Below the pieces are notes generated by a model. That model saw only the letters and a list, made by a program, of their open reading frames with translations. It did no database searches and was not told the DNA's origin. This document shows, piece by piece, positions 9,421-57,417 of a stretch of 64,000 bases of DNA; the stretch's first letter is position 1; each line of letters starts with the position of its first letter. This DNA is from Savitreella phatthalungensis (Eukaryota): positions 124,001 through 188,000 of the forward strand of contig AP039695.1 in assembly GCA_051599415.1 (NCBI GenBank), given 5' to 3'. The translations under genes and the position numbers were made by a program.

Positions 9421-9493
9421 CTGCACTGTACTGCATTGTATTGTACTATACTGTACTATTGTGCAATATACCGTACTGTACTGTAATGTACTG
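9421..9493. repeat. Degenerate (CTGTA)n pentanucleotide repeat
   Basis: ctgcactgtactgcattgtattgtactatactgtactat... read directly. Confidence 0.75.
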
Positions 9494-9685
9494 ACCTGAG
9501 CAGCTGCCAGACAGAAAGACATCCAGCTCAGCATGATGAGAGGAGATCCACGAAGACATGTGATAGAGCAGAGTGTGATTTAGTGATGATTGATATTGCT
9601 CCACAGATAAATTAGATTTCCATATCAACTTTAATTGAATGTGGAGTAAATTGAAAATCAAATTCAACCCGCCTAGCCTAAGCAT

Positions 9686-9790
9686 AAATTCAAATTCAAA
9701 TTCAAATTCAAATTCAAATTCAAATTCAAATTCAAATTCAAATTCAAATTCAAATTCAAATTCAAATTCAAATTCAAATTCAAATTCAAA
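9686..9790. repeat. Perfect (AAATTC)17 microsatellite
   Basis: 17 perfect copies at 9686-9787 plus a partial unit. Confidence 0.97.
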
Positions 9791-9942
9791 GTGTGCAGAG
9801 TGGAGCAATTTTAGACGTACGTAAATTAACCGTATTTACTCGATCCAGATATTCAATCGATCATCACGTACGGATTTCAAGCAATCCGCCATGCATTTGA
9901 TCAATCAATCAGTCAATCAATCAATCAATCCAGCCACACATA

Positions 9943-10036
9943 TACTGTATACTATACTCTACTGTACTGTACTGTACTGTACTCTACTGTACTGTACTGT
10001 ACTCTACTGTACTATACTGTACTCTACTGTACTGTA
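9943..10036. repeat. Degenerate (CTGTA/CTCTA/CTATA)n pentanucleotide repeat
   Basis: tactgtatactatactctactgtactgtactgtact... read directly; preceded by (TCAA)n at ~9900-9930. Confidence 0.85.
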
Positions 10037-10627
10037 CGTGTATCACCAATCATCATCCTCATCAGCTTCTTCTATACTATACTGTAGATCATACATTACT
10101 GATCTCCAGACTATCCATCCACCCATTCAGATTCACCCACAGGTCATCATCCTCTTCACAACACAGACAGTACAGACAAGAAGCAGCTTCTGTCATCATC
10201 ATCATCACCATCTATCGTTTCGCCTCCACCCACTCACAAGCTTCTAAACAAGCTCCCACCACATCAACCTCACCTTTCCTTCTCTTCAACTCAAGCAGCT
10301 CCAGACCAGATCACAGCTGTACCACTCACCACCTCTTTCCCTTCCATTGCTCAACCTTCCCTCCTATTCGACCACATCTGTGTCTCCATTGACCGCCCAC
10401 ATCCACTGCTCGCTCAGAGACATTCTGAAGTTCTCGATTCTTTCATTTCCAAAGTCATCCTCATCTCTCATTCCTCTCCATCAAAAGCGGTCAGAAAGCT
10501 TGGCATCGCACTATCCTGATCAGCACTGAAACATCCTAAACCACCACGCTTCATCATCATCTTCTCAATTCCTGCCTCCAGCCTGGCAAAGTGAATTGCT
10601 CAACCTCACACGCCTACACCTACACAT

Positions 10628-15178: not shown

Positions 15179-16245
15179 GTCGTTCGTGAGGTTTGGGTCG
15201 AAGAGGAAGAGAGTGATTTTGAAGAGATCAAGGAAAGAGAGAGAGAGAGAGAGAGATCGGATTCGGTTTCTTTGGTAATCAACTGCACTGTCCAGGACCC
15301 ACTGGATGACAGAGCTCCTTTATCCGGTGGACGATCCCTCAAGTCACTTTAAGGATGGGGAAAGTCCAAACCGCCTAGGCGCTGTACCGAAAGGAAACCT
15401 TTCGTCACGCTCTCTCTCTCCATCCCTCGCACTCCCCGTCGCTCTTCCTGTCTTCAAAGTACCGTCCTGCTAGCTGTTAGTACTCGGAGTTCGGTTTCTT
15501 GGGTGTCGAAGCGATTGGTGGTTGCCCGTGGTCGGACCTCTATAAGAAGACACACGATGCGGTGGCTTAGAGCGATGACGATCTAGCAGGTCAGTAGGAT
15601 GGTTGGACGCGGAGTATGGAAGTCCGCCTTCGGTAGACGAGGAGGAGGACGAGCTGAAGGAGTTAGTGTGAGGGAGGATTCAAGAGCAGTAAGAAGGAAA
15701 AGGTGGCGACCGATCGACGAAGGTGGTTAGAGGCATGGGAAGAGGTTGGGAGAGGAGAGAAGAGAAAAAACCTTCGGGCATGGCAGATATCCAGGACCTC
15801 TGGACCGCCAGGACTCCTGCAGACAAACTCACCCTCAAGTCCCGACAGGTATGGGGTGGCTCGTCCGAGCAGGCGCCGATCTCCCCTGTGAATTCTCTCT
15901 TTCTCTCGCTCTCTTTCTCTCTTCTTCCGCCTCGCCAACCCATCGAAAAGCTCGCGTTCCTCTGGCCCCCTAGCGTCTCGTCTCCCCCACAGTTCACACC
16001 CCAGTCAAGCCTCCACTCTCCACCGATCAGAAGCTCATCCAGTACTCTCGCGCCACTACCAATTCCACTGATGCCAATAAACGCCTCACTTGGTGTTTGG
16101 CAGCCGTGTTTCGCGCATCGTGTGCTCTGCTAGAGGTCAGTAGGATTGATCGGGATTCCGCCAGTAGTGTCGCTGCGGTCGAAGCGTCGATGTGTTGTTG
16201 TATTTTGTTGGCACTCTTTCCCTTCCACCCTCTCTCACGAACAGA
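15179..16245 (-). other. Highly structured RNA domain 3' of the orphan ORF (putative 3' UTR or embedded ncRNA)
   Basis: Nested inverted repeats: 15182-15190/16234-16242, 15205-15215/16212-16221, 15218-15225/15451-15458, 15466-15473/15583-15590 and ~15592-15620/~16038-16070. Contains two homologous internal modules. Confidence 0.6.
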
Positions 16246-16256
16246 CAGGAGGCCAA

Positions 16257-17573
16257 TTAGGCCTTGTGGACGATCTGGTTCTCTGCAGAGGCAGATCCCC
16301 AGTCGAAGACGACGTCGGTCATCTTGCCATTGAACGAGTCGTAAGAGAAGACCTGGTACTTGGGCTTAGGCTGTCCGCCGAGGGTGAGGAGGTTGGTGCG
16401 TGCAGCTGCGTCGATCATGTCTGTGCGACGGCCCTTGTTGCGGATGAAGTCCGAGATCGGGCGGCGGCTGTTGCGAGAGGGCGTGCAGCAGTAGCCGAAA
16501 AGGGGCTCACGGAACTCGTTGTCCTCGTCGTCAGCGTCAACGAAGGAGTCGCTGCCAGCCTCGCGAAGGTGCAGACGGAGCTTGGCGATCTCAGAGCCAG
16601 CGGCGGCCTTGTGCTGGAGACGCTGAAGGGCAAGGTCACGGTTCAGAGGACCGTTAGCGGCAGTGTAGAGCTCGAACTGCTCATCGTTGGCGTAGACAAT
16701 GGGGTCGATGACCTCCTGAGTCGCCTCGTCAGCGACCTCAGGGATATCGCCGTAGACAGATGCATCGTCGTCGACAATCTCCTCCTCTTGTGCCTCCTCA
16801 GCGATAGAGAGGACAGACAGGGACTGCTCGAGCAGCTTCGAGTTGAGCTCTGCGGCAAAGGAGGTCTCTGCCTTCAGAGACTCTTCGTCCTGCTCCTGAA
16901 GAGGCTCCTCGATAGGTGTGGTGGCGGCAGTCTCGAAGAGAGGCGAAGGCTGACCGGCAGTGGTAGGCGAAGCAGTACCGACATTGTCAGTACCGAGCTC
17001 GACCTCGAGGTCGTCGAGGATGTTGGAGCGCGATGCACCCCACTCGGACTCTTCGCGTAGTGAGAAGAGCGAACCGTTGTAGGCAACGGTGAGCTCGGAA
17101 AGGGGAAGGACGTCGGCGACGCGGATCCTCTTGACAGGCGAGGCAATGGTGTTGTTGAAGGCAGAGGTGTTGAAGAAAGAGCTCGCAGCGGTGACGTTGG
17201 CCTCCTCTTCAACCGGAGTCTGCTCGGAGTTGCAGAGCTGGACGTTCTTGAGTCCTGCGTAGTGCTCCGGAGCGCCCAGAGACTTTGCGGTTCCGGGAAT
17301 CATGTACATGTTGCGGGCCTTGAGATCCTTGTGGAGCTTCTTGTCAGCCTTCTTTAGGGCCTTTGCCTCCTTCTTGGCCTTCTTCTCAGCGCAGGTGGCA
17401 AAGCGAATGGCTCCGCAGGAGGCGTTGGAGATGGTCTGCTTAACCTCAGCGACAGCAAACTCACGAGCAAGCTCGCGCTCCCAGCTGCGCTTGCTGAAGA
17501 GAGAGAAGGGCTTGGGGGCCGGGGCCGAGGCCGAGGCAGAGAAAGTGGTGGTGTTCTTGTTGAAGAAAGACAT
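16257..17573 (-). CDS. Orphan protein, 438 aa (Lys-rich N-terminal helix, acidic centre, basic C-terminus)
   Basis: Long ORF with strong codon bias (AAG/GAG/AAC/TTC/GCC) and an A/C-rich leader ending ...cttacaaccATG. No family recognised. Confidence 0.75.
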   Translation of the reverse strand: MSFFNKNTTTFSASASAPAPKPFSLFSKRSWERELAREFAVAEVKQTISNASCGAIRFATCAEKKAKKEAKALKKADKKLHKDLKARNMYMIPGTAKSLGAPEHYAGLKNVQLCNSEQTPVEEEANVTAASSFFNTSAFNNTIASPVKRIRVADVLPLSELTVAYNGSLFSLREESEWGASRSNILDDLEVELGTDNVGTASPTTAGQPSPLFETAATTPIEEPLQEQDEESLKAETSFAAELNSKLLEQSLSVLSIAEEAQEEEIVDDDASVYGDIPEVADEATQEVIDPIVYANDEQFELYTAANGPLNRDLALQRLQHKAAAGSEIAKLRLHLREAGSDSFVDADDEDNEFREPLFGYCCTPSRNSRRPISDFIRNKGRRTDMIDAAARTNLLTLGGQPKPKYQVFSYDSFNGKMTDVVFDWGSASAENQIVHKA

Positions 17574-17654
17574 GGTTGTAAGAGTAGTTGAAGAGACTTA
17601 AAAAGTGTTGTAAAAGAGCTGAAGCTAGACGAGACTGCTTGAGTGTGTACTTGC

Positions 17655-18996
17655 CTGTTGGGATGTTAGTTGCCTGACTCGAAAGGGAAACAACACCCGT
17701 CCGCATCGCAATGGCCTCGCCGACGACGCTAGGGCCCTCGTCCTCGCTCATGACAGGAGCAGCATACGCTACTCCCGCCAGAGCGAGGACGGAGGACCAC
17801 CAGCATCGAGGGCTTGACTCGGTCAACGAGCTCATCCCCCTGATCTCTGCCACAAGGACAGAGGGGAGGACAAGCTCGCGGCCTTGACGGACGACGCCTG
17901 CGCGCGCCTCCACAAGGGTCAGAGGGAGCAGAGAAAGCGAAGAATTCGAGCATTTGCTCTATTCCCCGACATTTCCACTCCCTCCTCGTCTTGAGGAGGG
18001 TTGCTCAGACGCCGCCGGCAAGGCCAAGTCGAGCTCGAAATTTTGGCATGCCCTGCCGTCGCCGAGGCTCACGCTACGTCTCTCCCCCACGAATGTGGGA
18101 AAGAGATCGCAGCGCTCGCCTCGGCAACGTCAGGCACTGCCGTGCGGATTGTCTCGGGTCCGACCTTTACCATAGACAGACGTGCATGAAGGGTTTTTCA
18201 CCGAGGGGCAAGTCTCGGCCCGAGTACGAGGGAGGAAAAATGACCACGTCTGGGACGCCCGTTAAGGACAGTATCCCAGACAACTAGTTACTCTCTCCGT
18301 TGAAGGAGAGAGTCTAGGGATCATAGTTCCTTTCGACTCGGGGCTCTGACGAGCCCCTCGAAACCCTCAGCACGCCCGTCAGGCAAAGGTCGGTCGAGAC
18401 CCGCACGGCAACTCGAAGCGCGACGACGCAAGAAGAGACGGTTGGGGCGAATCCGCGGGCAGACCACGACTCGTCCCATCGACCTTCCCCTATGAAGGGA
18501 GAAGGGACGGAACGAACGCGGTCTGCCCTCCCACCTGACTACCCGACCCTCGTGAAGAAGGTAGGTAATCAGACGGTGTGGACTCCCCTCCCGCTGCAGG
18601 TCCGTCCCTTCAGGACTCCAGTCGCCCTCCTACCCGAGTACCTGACCACGTCGCCCTCATACAGAGAGGCAGACGTGAGATAGGCAACTTCTCGGGTCGA
18701 AAGAGACGAACAGGAGTCGCGTGAAGGGGAGAGGACCCACATTGGGAGGGACCGACTCATGCGTCGCCGGCAACGAGGCCGACGAGCCCGACTCGACCGA
18801 TCTCGCACGACGACAACTGGTACCACAAACACCCCTTTACACATTTGACGGCTAGGACTCTCGTTATGAGAATGCCCTAGACAACCAAGAGACAATCCGT
18901 TGAGGAAAGCTCTGGCGTCAAGTGTGTAGAGTGTTTGAGGACCAGCGCCGTCGGCGAGGCCGACGAGCGGTGAGTGTTGTCGAGAGGGATCCTTAC
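17655..18996 (-). other. Putative 1342-nt highly structured 5'-UTR spliceosomal intron (or structured leader)
   Basis: Minus strand: GTAAGG at 18996, ACTAAC branch at 17670-17665, CAG ending 17655. A long-range stem 17713-17730/18944-18961 plus 17690-17696/18974-18980 joins the ends, and the interior is filled with hairpins. Confidence 0.55.
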
Positions 18997-19031
18997 AAAG
19001 AAGGTGAGGATCGAGTATGGGCTGAAGGTTG

Positions 19032-20031
19032 CTTATATCCTTTCGTCGGCCAGGTCGAGAACTCGATTGACCTAGCCGATAATTCCATTGACCTAGCCGA
19101 CAATGTCATTGCCTTCGGCTATGTGTGATGGTGGTGATTTGCAGAAAAGACGTTGTCTTTTTGCAATTCCGTGTGTCCTAAAGCGTGCTGTCGGCCTGTG
19201 ACTGGACGATGTGAAGTGCACGACGAGCCGATGTGCAAAAGTACACCATAAGTAAGAGGTGTACAATTCCACCAAATCCTTCATACATGATCGATATCAT
19301 CATGTAGCTAGAGTCATCCTGAGTCGTATGCGACTACTCTCGCGGTCATCAGCCTCTTGTACGCCGAGCTATAGCGGGTGAAGTGGAATGGAGGTGTCGT
19401 GTGGACATGTTTTCGTGACGTTACATGAAGATGTTGAGCAAATGATCAATGTGATCTGAGCTCAATTGAGTATGAATTGAGTCTGATTCAGGTGTGATAT
19501 TGTGATTTTGTATCAATTCACCCCCAAATAGTTTGATTCACTTTTAGCGATGCACGTGAATATATGCAATTGATCAATTGACCGTTGACCAATCAATGGA
19601 TGTACCATTGGCGTGGCTGGTCATTGAGACTTTCTCAAATCTCTGCAAAGCGCTGATCCTTCTGACGCAATGGCAACCGTTGACGGTACACGGCAACCGT
19701 CAAAGTTTATCGTAGATTATCCATTGTATTCCTTCGGCTGAGTCGTTACCATCAGCAACGGGTAGCCGAGTGATTGTCAACAGTCTCAAGAGGCGTCTCG
19801 GCTAGCATCCCATACCCGTATAGCCTTCATATTGACCGATGTGCTCGGCGATATTAGTATGAAATTGATCGTCAGACCGAGCTTGACCACCGTAGCGAGT
19901 ATGACTGTCTCTCGCCCACTGAGCGTATGGCTGGACCGTTTGGGAAGCTAGCCGAAGGCGTCTGGTCGCGAAGCTTGTGATCGCGTGAAAGGCCGGAGAA
20001 TTTCAATTAAGCTCGGCTGAAAGCTCGGCTA
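19032..20031 (-). promoter_or_regulatory. Putative promoter: TATA-like ATATAAG plus cluster of TAGCCGA motifs
   Basis: cttatat at 19032-19038. TAGCCGA/TCGGCTA at 19073, 19094, 19115, 19763, 19798, 19949 and 20025. ATTGACCTAGCCGA direct repeat at 19066 and 19087. Confidence 0.55.
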
Positions 20032-21240
20032 TCGGAGAATTAAATCGAGTGGCTGTGCTGTGGCGCAGTTCCGCGCTCAATTCTGGAGATATGTCGTTCG
20101 TGGTCACGATGACGCCGGTGGAACGCATACTTCGAGCGTCGATTGCTCTCTCGCCGTCGCTCTAGAGTGGTTCGTGTAGCTGCAGTGTGATCGGGACAAT
20201 TGGCGCTATCGAATGGTATCGGTATCGCTGTGCTGGCACGGCCGCAGCAGGCCTAGTGGATTACTCCCCCATGTTGTCGCATGCTGACAACATCCATGTA
20301 CAAGCTGACGTCGCACGACTTAGCTTCGAAAGTGATGCTTCATGGGTCGCTTGTGACGTGTGTTGAAAGGGCGACTGGTCCCGAGGGTATTCAGGCCGAT
20401 TAAGCTGGTTATGATCATCCTGTCGGCGACTCTGGCGTGGTTCGTAGAAGAATCCGAGCGAATACAAAGCCATGCTTATCTCCGAGCACGTCTCGATGGA
20501 CACACATCGCTCTAGTACATGCTCGACACGTTCCGAAGGTCGCAGCGATGATGATCAGTTCATTGATAACTCCATCATGTCAACACTATGTTATTCACGA
20601 TTGAGACCTGTTGATGTGTTCGATTCTGACGAACTGGTCCCCTGGTCGGATATCATGCACCCAGCCTATCGAACCACACTCTCGGATACCAGCACAGTGT
20701 GCAAGGAGTGTGTGCAGAAGACATTCGGTCACAGAGGATTGACATGCCGCCGGTAGATCTGCAACGAGAACTTATTGCCACCCGGACGATTTGCTGTCGA
20801 TCACTATCATTGTGGAGCCATGGCCACCCTGACGACGAATCCAAAAAAAATTGTGGCTGTCAGCCACATTGATCACATGTCAATCCCACTGAGGGCGCAT
20901 GCAAACGTGCGCGACCAAGTCAGATGGTCACACCTTATCACTTCACCTTCCCCTGCAGACAGCTCACGACGGGTGCAACGCGACATCGTATGTGGATGCT
21001 GTCTGGACGCTCACGTATCCGTCTCACGCACACCGAGTCCACTTACGTGGTCTCGACTAAAACATGCTGCACGAATCTGCTCGAAGCGGGTTGTCGGGAT
21101 GTTTTAATTTCATACAATCATGGTTATGGTACACTCAGCGCCAATCTGCGGGTCTGCACTGTCTGTGTTTGTAGGCTGGCACTCGATCCGGTCTGAGCCG
21201 ACGGAGTTCTCGAATTGAAAGGTCGCCAAGCGTGAATCGA

Positions 21241-55189: not shown

Positions 55190-56335
55190 CTATGTGGAAA
55201 AGGGTGGATGTCGTTGTGAGGAGTTGGGATCGCCTGAGTGTGAAGGTGTAGCGAGTGGTGGATCCTCCTCCTCGACCACCACCACCTCTTCCACTTCTTC
55301 GTCCTCAGACGATATTTCAGGACCGACCAACCCAATATACCGTCGCAGCCAGGCCATCTTGGGACCGCTCCTTGCACGGGACGACACCTTGAAGCCGTAG
55401 ATCCTCGGGAGGTATGGTTCTGGGATTGCTGGCGGGGTTGGAGCTGTGAGGGTGGGTGGTTCTAGGGTTGGTGGTTGGGTGCGTGGTTGGAGTGCGGGCA
55501 GACGGTTGAGGAGGTCTGGGAAGGTGAGGAAGAAGAGGTGTGGGAAGGTTGTGCCGAAGAAAGCGCCGTCGATGTTGTGGAATCTCGAGTTTGGCGGGAC
55601 GTAGACGTCCAGGCAGTTCGGGCAGTACAGCTTCACGCTCTCCTGAGAAGGAATGTCGCTCAACCCGACCGGCACCACACCAGTCCGCTCACAGAACGCC
55701 CGTGGGCAAGTCCCAAAATGCCCACCTTCGTACTTCTCAGCCATCGACGCAAGTCCAGCACGCGACACGATATACCGGCTGTGGATCAACCCGTACAGCA
55801 GCTCGGCAGACGCCTCGATCGCCGATTGGTCTGCTGCAGATCGACCTCCTCCACCACGACCGCCGCCGGCGTGACCGTTTGCATGACCCTTGCCGTCCAG
55901 GTCGGAGTCCTCTTCGTCGTCCTCGTCCGGCTCTAGGTCGAGGATGAGCTCGAACGCTTCTCTGTAGTTGGCGACGGCTGTGTGGAGACCTGTCATGTTG
56001 AAGTCGTCCTCGATGAATTCCTCGGGCACCTCGCAGAAGTACTCGTGACCGAGGTGCGTACACCACCACGTGATCCAGCTCAAGCTCTCAGACGTCGACG
56101 ACATCAAACCCTCACTCCCAAGCAAATCCTCCTCGTCCTCATCCTCCTCCGACGCGTCCTCGGAATCATCGCTTCGCCATGACCCAACCAACAGGTCCTG
56201 CCCGTCCAGACGAGGCTCCTCTATCGATAGTACTTGCGTCTGTGATCGTGATTGCTGCTGCTGCTGCTGGTGGCGCAGACGTTGTCGATCGAGAAGATCG
56301 TCTTGGTCATTAGACATGAGCCCTGAATTGCTCAT
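55190..56335 (-). CDS. ckb1: Casein kinase II regulatory beta subunit
   Basis: SWITWWC..GHEYFCEVPEEFIEDDFNMTGL, LYGLIHSRYI, FGTCPR, VKLYCPNCLDVY, IDGAFFGTTFPHLF and PRIYGFKV. Confidence 0.95.
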   Translation of the reverse strand: MSNSGLMSNDQDDLLDRQRLRHQQQQQQSRSQTQVLSIEEPRLDGQDLLVGSWRSDDSEDASEEDEDEEDLLGSEGLMSSTSESLSWITWWCTHLGHEYFCEVPEEFIEDDFNMTGLHTAVANYREAFELILDLEPDEDDEEDSDLDGKGHANGHAGGGRGGGGRSAADQSAIEASAELLYGLIHSRYIVSRAGLASMAEKYEGGHFGTCPRAFCERTGVVPVGLSDIPSQESVKLYCPNCLDVYVPPNSRFHNIDGAFFGTTFPHLFFLTFPDLLNRLPALQPRTQPPTLEPPTLTAPTPPAIPEPYLPRIYGFKVSSRARSGPKMAWLRRYIGLVGPEISSEDEEVEEVVVVEEEDPPLATPSHSGDPNSSQRHPPFST

Positions 56336-56479: not shown

Positions 56480-56681
56480 CTGGAAACACCCCTGTTAGTA
56501 GGGCAATTGGGAAATTTGCGATCGTGACAGGGCAGCGCGGCTGAGCTGTTGACCGACTCGGAATAGATTGCTGGTACTCAAGAAGGTACCCCGTCCGTAA
56601 TACTGTTGTACAGAACCTTCTCTCTACTTGCTAGAGAGCTATTGTAGAGCCTGTCCAGTTGACCCCTTATCTTGCACTTAC
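56480..56681 (-). other. Putative 202-nt 5'-UTR intron of ckb1
   Basis: Minus strand: GTAAGT at 56681, TACTAAC at 56500-56494, TTTCCAG ending 56480. Internal stem 56526-56531/56650-56655. Confidence 0.6.
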
Positions 56682-57078: not shown

Positions 57079-57417
57079 TCAGTCGATCGACTTGTTGAAC
57101 TTCTCGTAGAGGTCCTTTGGGAGGGATGCCATGACTGTGTGTGAGTGGAGTGCGCCTGGTGCTTCCTTTGGTGGGTTGCGAGGGTCTCCTCCTGGGTGGT
57201 AGAGGTACTTGAAGTTGCCTCCTTCCTCGCCCTCGCCGTCCTGGTGCCAGGGCATGCCTTCCTGCGGGATCTGCACGTTCGCTTCAGGTTTTGCGTTTCC
57301 ACCCTTCTTGCCCAGGTGGTAGCCTGCAGCGCCAAAGATAGCAGCGTAGATGGAAGCGAGCACGTAGAGCTCAGGGTCCTTGCGACCCCAGCGCATCATG
57401 TTGCTTGCCTTTGACAT
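57079..57417 (-). CDS. Small single-TM protein, possibly NDUFA4/MLRQ (B12D)-like mitochondrial protein
   Basis: 'DPELYVL' followed by a TM helix, and a conserved-looking tail 'YLYHPGGDPRNPPKEAPGAL'; strong codon bias. Confidence 0.55.
   Translation of the reverse strand: MSKASNMMRWGRKDPELYVLASIYAAIFGAAGYHLGKKGGNAKPEANVQIPQEGMPWHQDGEGEEGGNFKYLYHPGGDPRNPPKEAPGALHSHTVMASLPKDLYEKFNKSID

Follow-up and report, generated by a model that had tools for sequence, protein, structure and literature searches.

How a fungus whose introns are probably short could remove a segment of more than 1.3 kb from a transcript is the question raised by one locus of Savitreella phatthalungensis. Fungi near Taphrina and fission yeast splice by short-intron recognition. 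The locus lies in a 64,000-nt stretch of DNA (GenBank assembly GCA_051599415.1, contig AP039695.1, positions 124,001 to 188,000 of the forward strand; hereafter the window, to which all positions refer), and consists of a 1342-nt segment, 18996-17655 on the minus strand, located upstream of an open reading frame (ORF) of 438 amino acids (16257..17573, minus strand, ATG at 17573). The ORF is the putative host gene, and corresponds to no Pfam family. A sequence-only reading had proposed that the segment is a giant intron of the 5' untranslated region (5' UTR), the ends of which are clamped by a long-range stem, and which may act as a stable intronic noncoding RNA or a regulatory device. Among the explanations weighed below, the best supported, and most likely, is an oversized, self-compacting putative intron. 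About even chances are given to 18996-17655 being a 5'-UTR spliceosomal intron that belongs to an orphan gene and has a giant insert zipped off.

The ability of the segment to fold is beyond what is expected from its composition. The 1342 nt at 17655-18996 were folded as RNA, and compared with 40 dinucleotide-preserving shuffles per strand. The minus-strand RNA folds at -820.3 kcal/mol, its shuffles at -547.7±8.9 (z = -30.7); values for the plus-strand RNA are -687.3 kcal/mol and -508.2±9.9 (z = -18.0). The segment is the strongest folding outlier of the window, and nothing else is comparable. In a sliding scan of all 64 kb (frames of 300 nt, 150-nt step, energy regressed on GC content), the top 4 minus-strand and the top 7 plus-strand residuals all fell within 17701-19200.

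Folding of the region 17400-19300 set the boundaries of a closed structured RNA domain of 1293 nt (18981-17689, minus strand). Alone, the domain folds at -814.4 kcal/mol (-0.63 per nt), and forms 521 pairs, which engage 80.6% of the bases, and 431 stacked steps, with 11 hairpin loops only, each measuring 4–6 nt. Confidence in the pairing is high: of the 552 pairs predicted in 19060-17570, 79.9% have p>0.9 and 97.8% p>0.5. Stems are arranged in a hierarchy, spanning 1293, 1010, 769, 366, 324 and 273 nt, and enclose arms of 30–47 bp; eight helices within the domain measure at least 30 bp. The minimum-energy fold of the minus strand features arms at 18137-18048 (38 bp), 18410-18362/18195-18138 (47 bp), 18528-18457 (32 bp) and 17804-17728 (35 bp), and further arms at 18281-18248, 18317-18284 and 18750-18733/18603-18586. 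Most of the arms drawn in the sequence-only reading are present in this fold, but the hairpins which had been placed at 17980-18000 and 18340-18357 are replaced by longer pairings. Alignment of all 11 hairpins revealed no common unit, the mean column identity being 25%.

The domain is closed by a zipper-type stem of 33 bp, 4 of which are G·U, with pair probabilities of 0.64-1.0. Its 5' arm (18981-18947, minus strand) and 3' arm (17727-17689, minus strand) were delimited by the fold and by an inverted-repeat search, and are also the left and right inverted termini of the element. Two complementarities had been described earlier at these places, as a clamp made by GGCCTCGCCGACG (17713-17725) and 18949-18961, and as a pairing of ACAACAC (17690-17696) with 18974-18980. 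Both are found in the fold; the former extends to 18 nt at 94%, and the 13-nt and 7-nt tracts are two pieces of the one 33-bp closing stem. Structure, strand and clamp, as first read, are real according to fold z scores, motif reading and pair probabilities.

The fold bears the mark of one strand. G·U pairs number 58 when the minus strand is folded, vs 18 for the plus strand (binomial p 4.7e-6). Within the closed domain, 59 G·U pairs are found vs 2 A·C single mismatches (p 1.6e-15), an A·C mismatch being what would be G·U on the opposite strand. Since neutral decay of DNA palindromes gives both classes equally, the ratio of 59 to 2 indicates that pairing has been shaped as minus-strand RNA. 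The folding algorithm rewards G·U pairs, and this introduces an ascertainment bias; yet long helices would keep A·C mismatches as 1x1 loops, and do not. The element is a large RNA fold under strand-specific constraint, whatever the structure of the transcript proves to be.

Part of the domain is duplicated. Two twin-hairpin modules, identified by fold and alignment on the minus strand, each make the tip of a Y-shaped arm: module 1 (18918-18848) has loops UCAAC and AUAAC, module 2 (18319-18246) loops UUCAAC and UUAAC. The modules are paralogous, as they align with a local score of 23, vs 12.6±2.1 for shuffles, 3 of 2000 of which matched it. Of the 15 pairs common to both, 9 are identical, 3 differ at one base only, 3 differ at both bases in compensatory fashion, and none is disrupted. 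Because there is one paralogous pair only, covariation in the modules is modest evidence; it agrees with shaping at the RNA level. A covariance model of the twin-hairpin module matched its two training copies alone in the window, and no third copy. Loops ending in AAC (4 of 11, nominal p 6.6e-5) are all in the two modules, so that the duplication explains them, and no motif is claimed.

The closed domain is bracketed by splice signals. GTAAGG, AACTAAC and CAG, the motifs on which the intron had been proposed, are all found by direct reading of the minus strand at the positions assigned to them. The candidate 5' splice site GTAAGG (18996-18991), 15 nt before the closing stem, agrees with the U2-type donor GTAAGT at 5 of 6 positions. 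The candidate branch site AACTAAC (17671-17665, branch A at 17666) is 22 nt past the closing stem, and is predicted to be unpaired (p 0.74-0.99). The candidate 3' splice site CAG (17657-17655) includes the first AG past the branch A, 11 nt from 17666; a yeast-type branch site with a close first AG is a mark of U2-type introns. In keeping with the distance of 82 nt reported for the acceptor, 81 nt lie between CAG and the ATG at 17573. These would make the leader portion of exon 2 (17574..17654, minus strand), and contain no ATG by direct reading. Donor, domain, branch site and acceptor are thus in the correct order, and on the same strand as the downstream ORF.

Such signals were counted in the window. 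On its minus strand, GTAAG occurs 29 times, and CTAAC followed by YAG within 25 nt 7 times. Motifs of the latter type reside inside long ORFs in 0 of 7 cases on the minus strand vs 3 of 4 on the plus strand. The joint chance that a given domain has GTAAG within 30 nt upstream and CTAAC..YAG within 40 nt downstream is about 6e-5, or 1.2e-4 if either strand is permitted. Sixteen ATGs are present on the minus strand between the donor and the start codon, none of them in the 81-nt leader past the acceptor. A transcript running through the element would therefore be translatable only once the element is removed. A structure of about -820 kcal/mol also separates donor and start codon.

Splice-like motifs were noticed at two other places of the minus strand. 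At 56480-56681, GTAAGT (56681-56676) is found 183 nt before a branch/acceptor motif made by TACTAAC (about 56500-56494) and CAG (56482-56480). Judging from these motifs, the region is a candidate for another intron of a 5' UTR, about 202 nt in length, the end of which would precede the ATG of ORF 55190..56335 by 145 nt; its structure is unremarkable in the sliding fold scan. With this second candidate, introns in 5' UTRs may be habitual in the genome. The region 15470-15832, in the gap downstream of the 438-amino-acid ORF, hosts the branch/acceptor motifs CACACTAAC..TTCAG (15666-15654) and GTACTAAC..CTAG (15480-15470), with GTGAGT donors 166 and 352 nt upstream, respectively. An unannotated spliced transcript may originate here.

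Viewed as an intron, the segment would be made of two parts, an ordinary short-intron core of 49 nt and a self-folding insert of 1293 nt (18981-17689), shaped as a branched bundle of long helices. Of the 49 nt outside the closed domain, 15 precede the stem, beginning with GTAAGG, and 34 follow it, including AACTAAC and ending with CAG. The mean intron length in Taphrina deformans is 78 nt, according to the accessible text of the genome paper (PMC3648899). Measured on this value the 49-nt core is ordinary, and the whole segment about 17 times the mean. The 33-bp stem would remove 1.29 kb from the path, and keep donor and branch site about 37–43 nt of single strand apart. A spliceosome accustomed to introns shorter than 100 nt could thereby pair the donor with the branch site, and 1342 nt would be treated as about 50. 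The dense internal pairing would stop the arms of the clamp from mispairing, and bury most internal donor-like and branch-like motifs. The insert was probably acquired whole, when a mobile or RNA-born element, with inverted termini and perhaps an 8-bp target duplication, entered an intron that already existed and measured about 41 nt. Once spliced out and debranched, the domain would have both ends shielded by the 33-bp helix, and the excised RNA, which would resist exonucleases, might persist as a stable molecule.

Stems acting in this way are known as zipper stems in Saccharomyces cerevisiae, where those of RPS17B, RPL7B and other introns likewise shorten the effective distance between donor and branch site. 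In the accessible part of the study describing them, zipper stems are defined by at least 10 nt on the donor side, at least 20 nt on the branch side, and a total linker of 42–85 nt (PMC12350175). The element has 15 nt on the donor side (18996-18982) and 22 nt on the branch side (17689 to 17666), both within these ranges. The effective length had been estimated at about 50 nt, but the single-stranded linker from the donor to the branch A is actually 15 + 22 = 37 nt with the full stem; it becomes 43 nt if the outer G·U, A-U and C-G pairs open, the limit being one modelled on the S. cerevisiae A complex. The same text describes yeast zipper introns as mostly 400–500 nt long, with stems of at least 6 bp (PMC12350175), whereas here 33 bp close a domain of 1293 nt which is 80% paired.

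The sequence immediately upstream has to be considered before the intron can be judged. A TATA-like box, GGATATAAGC, is found at 19040-19031 (minus strand), and may serve in promoter function; the donor follows it after 41 nt, and the closing stem after 56 nt. A CT-rich block extends to 18997. An 8-bp hairpin (18988..19012, minus strand; arms 19012-19004/18996-18988) is predicted with pair probabilities of 0.81-1.0, and involves the donor. In fission yeast, transcription starts about 30 nt downstream of such boxes. Tandem 21-nt repeats are located at 19056-19097, directly upstream of the TATA-like box on the minus strand, and copies of the motifs CGGCTAG and AGCCGAG are dispersed over about 1 kb upstream (19045-20050, minus strand). 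The sequence of the latter region suggests a regulated promoter with clustered binding sites for factors.

Several observations weigh against a zipper-stem intron. The 37-nt linker is 5 nt under the minimum of 42 nt modelled for S. cerevisiae, and the three terminal pairs of the stem must open. The clamp alone would suffice for splicing, and leaves the 80% pairing of 1.3 kb unexplained. Donor-like GTATG motifs at 18662 and 17767 are partly in hairpin loops, hence not buried. If transcription begins upstream of 19012, the 8-bp hairpin would mask the donor. With a spacing of about 30 nt from the TATA-like box, the sole one, exon 1 would measure about 9–11 nt only; a longer spacing would put the start inside the element, and starts further upstream would add to the leader the ATGs at 19109 and 19079. 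The box suits equally well a stand-alone noncoding RNA. The 438-amino-acid ORF is an orphan, and its expression is putative. As to the origin of the insert, it is suggested by a single 7/8 flank match in pyrimidine-rich sequence, next to a mismatched terminal pair, and no second copy of the element resides in the 64-kb window.

The flanks and termini deserve description, as they bear on how the insert may have been acquired. Each terminus is made by ACAACAC, 12–16 variable nt, and GGCCTCGCCGACG. Within the window the pattern has just two occurrences, inverted relative to each other, where 0 are expected. The resulting terminal inverted repeats, a feature of DNA transposons and miniature inverted-repeat transposable elements (MITEs), are imperfect and measure 33–39 nt. 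The domain is flanked on the minus strand by TCCCTCTC (18982..18989) and TCCCTTTC (17681..17688), left and right halves of a possible 8-bp target-site duplication, which match at 7 of 8 positions. Among 20000 random junction pairs, 219 (1.1%) gave an equal or better match, 25 offsets being allowed. It is plausible, but unproven, that the unit was inserted in an intron about 41 nt long.

Relatives of the element were sought in larger collections. A metagenome scan with the terminus pattern hit at least 120 loci; in 80 of these at least 120 loci, a single pattern match was present per locus, and none was the locus of the window itself. When the element was compared by blastn to 120 matched metagenome loci, one 35-nt match was found, at the pattern itself, and the pattern matches are thus viewed as chance matches. 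A distant blastn search with the element gave no match in phage and plasmid collections. Of two frames of the element, one (108 amino acids) matched nothing in a protein search, not even itself, and the other (98 amino acids) had 0 matches in 1.84 billion representatives; both results are uninformative, the frames being evidently outside the collections.

A closely allied view takes the 1293-nt domain as the entity itself, for which the intron would be a vehicle only. It would be either a long structured RNA, hosted by the intron, set free when this is spliced, and proof against exonucleases, or else a selfish mobile element born from RNA, a 'giant introner-like cargo' of a class not yet described. 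This is considered possible, at clearly less than even chances. Selection at the RNA level would here maintain the fold, as suggested by the G·U bias, the compensatory changes in the modules and the hierarchy of long-range stems.

Other explanations dispense with splicing. The segment may encode a stand-alone noncoding RNA made by RNA polymerase II (Pol II), driven by the TATA-like box that follows the tandem CGGCTAGGTCAAT repeats, starting near 19005 and made up almost wholly of the closed 1293-nt domain; the 438-amino-acid gene would have a start of its own near 17650, and the splice-like motifs would be chance occurrences, or serve in 3'-end formation. The position of the box, which precedes the closing stem by 56 nt, counted to its first base, fits this arrangement, as does the CT-rich block; so do the 81 nt before the ATG, which resemble a complete ATG-free leader, and the implausibly short exon 1 which the intron would entail. 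Shaping as minus-strand RNA fits any minus-strand transcript, not just an intron. Two strict splice signals, however, would have to be at the edges of the domain by chance (about 6e-5), no 3'-end signal was identified in the region, and the downstream gene would have only 82–115 nt in which to place its promoter, if this is not inside the element. Rfam, too, offers no family for such a product: at gathering thresholds Rfam 15 gave 0 matches in the whole window, and E-value scans returned sub-threshold matches to hairpin-type models only. A stand-alone noncoding RNA is held to be unlikely. Quite unlikely is also a passive, MITE-like insertion of a DNA transposon, in which the inverted termini are terminal inverted repeats, the flank match is an 8-bp duplication, and RNA folding has no role in the host. 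The uniqueness of the terminus pair in the window, the flanks TCCCTCTC and TCCCTTTC, the GC content of the element (60%, vs 48% in the adjacent upstream kb), and the plausible 41-nt intron left by deletion of the element and one flank copy all speak for it. The bias of 59 to 2 speaks otherwise, as the neutral decay of a palindrome predicts equal numbers of G·U-type and A·C-type mismatches. Moreover, the hairpins, the twin modules excepted, are unique sequences rather than repeats of a single unit; a flank match as good is expected by chance at a level of 1.1%, and the terminal pair is G·U, i.e. mismatched as DNA; no other copy is found in 64 kb, and none of the 120 loci listed, among at least 120 metagenome loci sharing the pattern, resembles the element beyond it. 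To our knowledge, the termini fit no superfamily consensus.

The eight helices of at least 30 bp, with loops of 4–6 nt, are also reminiscent of a hairpin-RNA locus for RNA interference, in which helices of 30–47 bp would be substrates of Dicer or RNase III, and yield small RNAs or, by way of regulation, cause the destruction of the host transcript. The only Rfam matches, all sub-threshold, are to microRNA-precursor models (the best is MIR820, 27.5 bits vs a gathering score of 196), and the T. deformans genome paper, as far as its accessible part goes, has a supplementary table of RNA-mediated silencing genes (PMC3648899). Still, no other sequence of the window matches the arms, so that no target is evident, and small RNAs can be produced without a closed, branched fold or a hierarchy of long-range stems; such a function is very unlikely. 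Alternatively, the domain might have originated as a replicon or satellite born from RNA, either viroid-like or derived from a virus, of which a DNA copy was recently reverse-transcribed into an intron or UTR; selection on the RNA would then have shaped its structure before it came to this locus. The G·U bias argues for an origin of the fold as RNA, the possible short target duplication is compatible with insertion, and a pairing density of 80.6% at -0.63 kcal/mol per nt is at or above that of viroid-like and delta-like RNAs. This origin is nonetheless highly improbable: no ribozyme family was found at E values up to 10, no ORF longer than 108 amino acids overlaps the domain, bar a 150-amino-acid GTG frame running into the 5' end of the host ORF, phage and plasmid collections contain no match, and both a poly(A) tail and retrozyme-type direct repeats are missing. 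By the Rfam scans, the closed fold belongs to no known RNA family. Telomerase RNA was considered as well, and practically dismissed. Fungal telomerase RNAs are structured, and 1.2–2 kb in length; that of Ustilago is reportedly 1291 nt long and mRNA-derived. The element is similar in size, structure and Pol II context only, and its long near-perfect hairpins are unlike known telomerase RNA cores. Permutations of CCCTAA of at least 7 nt are absent from both strands of 17600-19100, where the search for a telomerase template also failed to find any 9-mer with up to 1 mismatch. Telomeres of Taphrina are TTAGGG repeats according to the accessible text of two reports (PMC7857110, PMC3648899), which counts against a telomerase RNA; in Ustilaginales the template is given as UAACCCUAA in the part available of a third (PMC10035886).

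The oversized intron, which remains the best-supported explanation, may also be compared to other introns with structured or repeated sequences. Introns derived from transposons, such as the introners of algae and other eukaryotes, and MITEs residing in introns resemble it in their inverted termini, to which a short target duplication may be added here; their insertion is tolerated because they are removed by the spliceosome. We know of no RNA-strand-specific G·U bias in MITEs. Introners supply or create their own splice sites, whereas the signals bracketing the element are those of the 49-nt core around it. The introner-like elements of Dothideomycetes, in the accessible portion of their description, are also longer than regular introns, have a stable structure and exhibit compensatory mutations; they measure about twice a regular intron, occur in hundreds of near-identical copies, and carry their own splice sites (PMC3609843). 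The element shares with them the stable structure (z -30.7) and a length above that of regular introns (1342 nt vs the T. deformans mean of 78 nt). In contrast, it measures about 17 times a regular intron, has no second copy in 64 kb, and its splice signals are located outside the inverted termini. Internally symmetrical stwintrons and sister introns of Hypoxylaceae feature terminal inverted repeats of 45–55 nt, which may make the RNA double-stranded and join the ends; the accessible text describes them as short, nested introns in which the donor is split, and which lack flanking duplications but have numerous sister copies (PMC8469720). The element differs in having a plain GTAAGG donor, inverted termini set back from the intron ends by 15 and 34 nt, and an interior of 1.2 kb made by unrelated hairpins. 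None of these four closest systems combines a single 1.3-kb closed domain, 80% paired, with splice signals outside the inverted termini. No description of such an element was found in the literature searched, which is not proof that none exists.

The window has a GC content of about 55%, is eukaryotic, and is composed of long uninterrupted ORFs. A tricalbin-like protein is encoded near the element. Its closest relatives are 77%, 67% and 66% identical, and identity is 64% to the T. deformans protein and 54% to those of Protomyces and Saitoella. Judged by these identities, the organism is an ascomycete near Taphrinales. The 438-amino-acid protein, in contrast to its neighbour, has no relative in a word-based protein search, which returned the query only, and no usable match in the ESM Atlas. 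A transfer RNA scan of the window found none. Besides the element, the sole folding outlier in the 300-nt scan is an AT-rich island at 9451-10050 (GC 0.30-0.36), the minus-strand fold of which is more stable than predicted by GC content (residuals of -3.2 and -2.3 standard deviations). A short coding-looking frame at 57080-57400 on the minus strand, with a TGA near 57080 (...KDLYEKFNKSID), escaped the list of ORFs of at least 120 amino acids; it may represent a small gene that has a further exon upstream.

The strand-specific excess of G·U pairs is a clean signature, readable from sequence only, which can be used to search for further elements of this type. If the segment is a real intron, it shows how far the self-folding of RNA can stretch the limit of short-intron splicing. 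It would also be a natural construct, a core of 49 nt with a removable insert of 1.3 kb, suited to test the zipper-stem idea beyond budding yeast. If the domain is instead a stable product, or a mobile element shaped as RNA, it would represent a new kind of large structured fungal RNA, and might provide a link between structured introner-like elements and intron gain.

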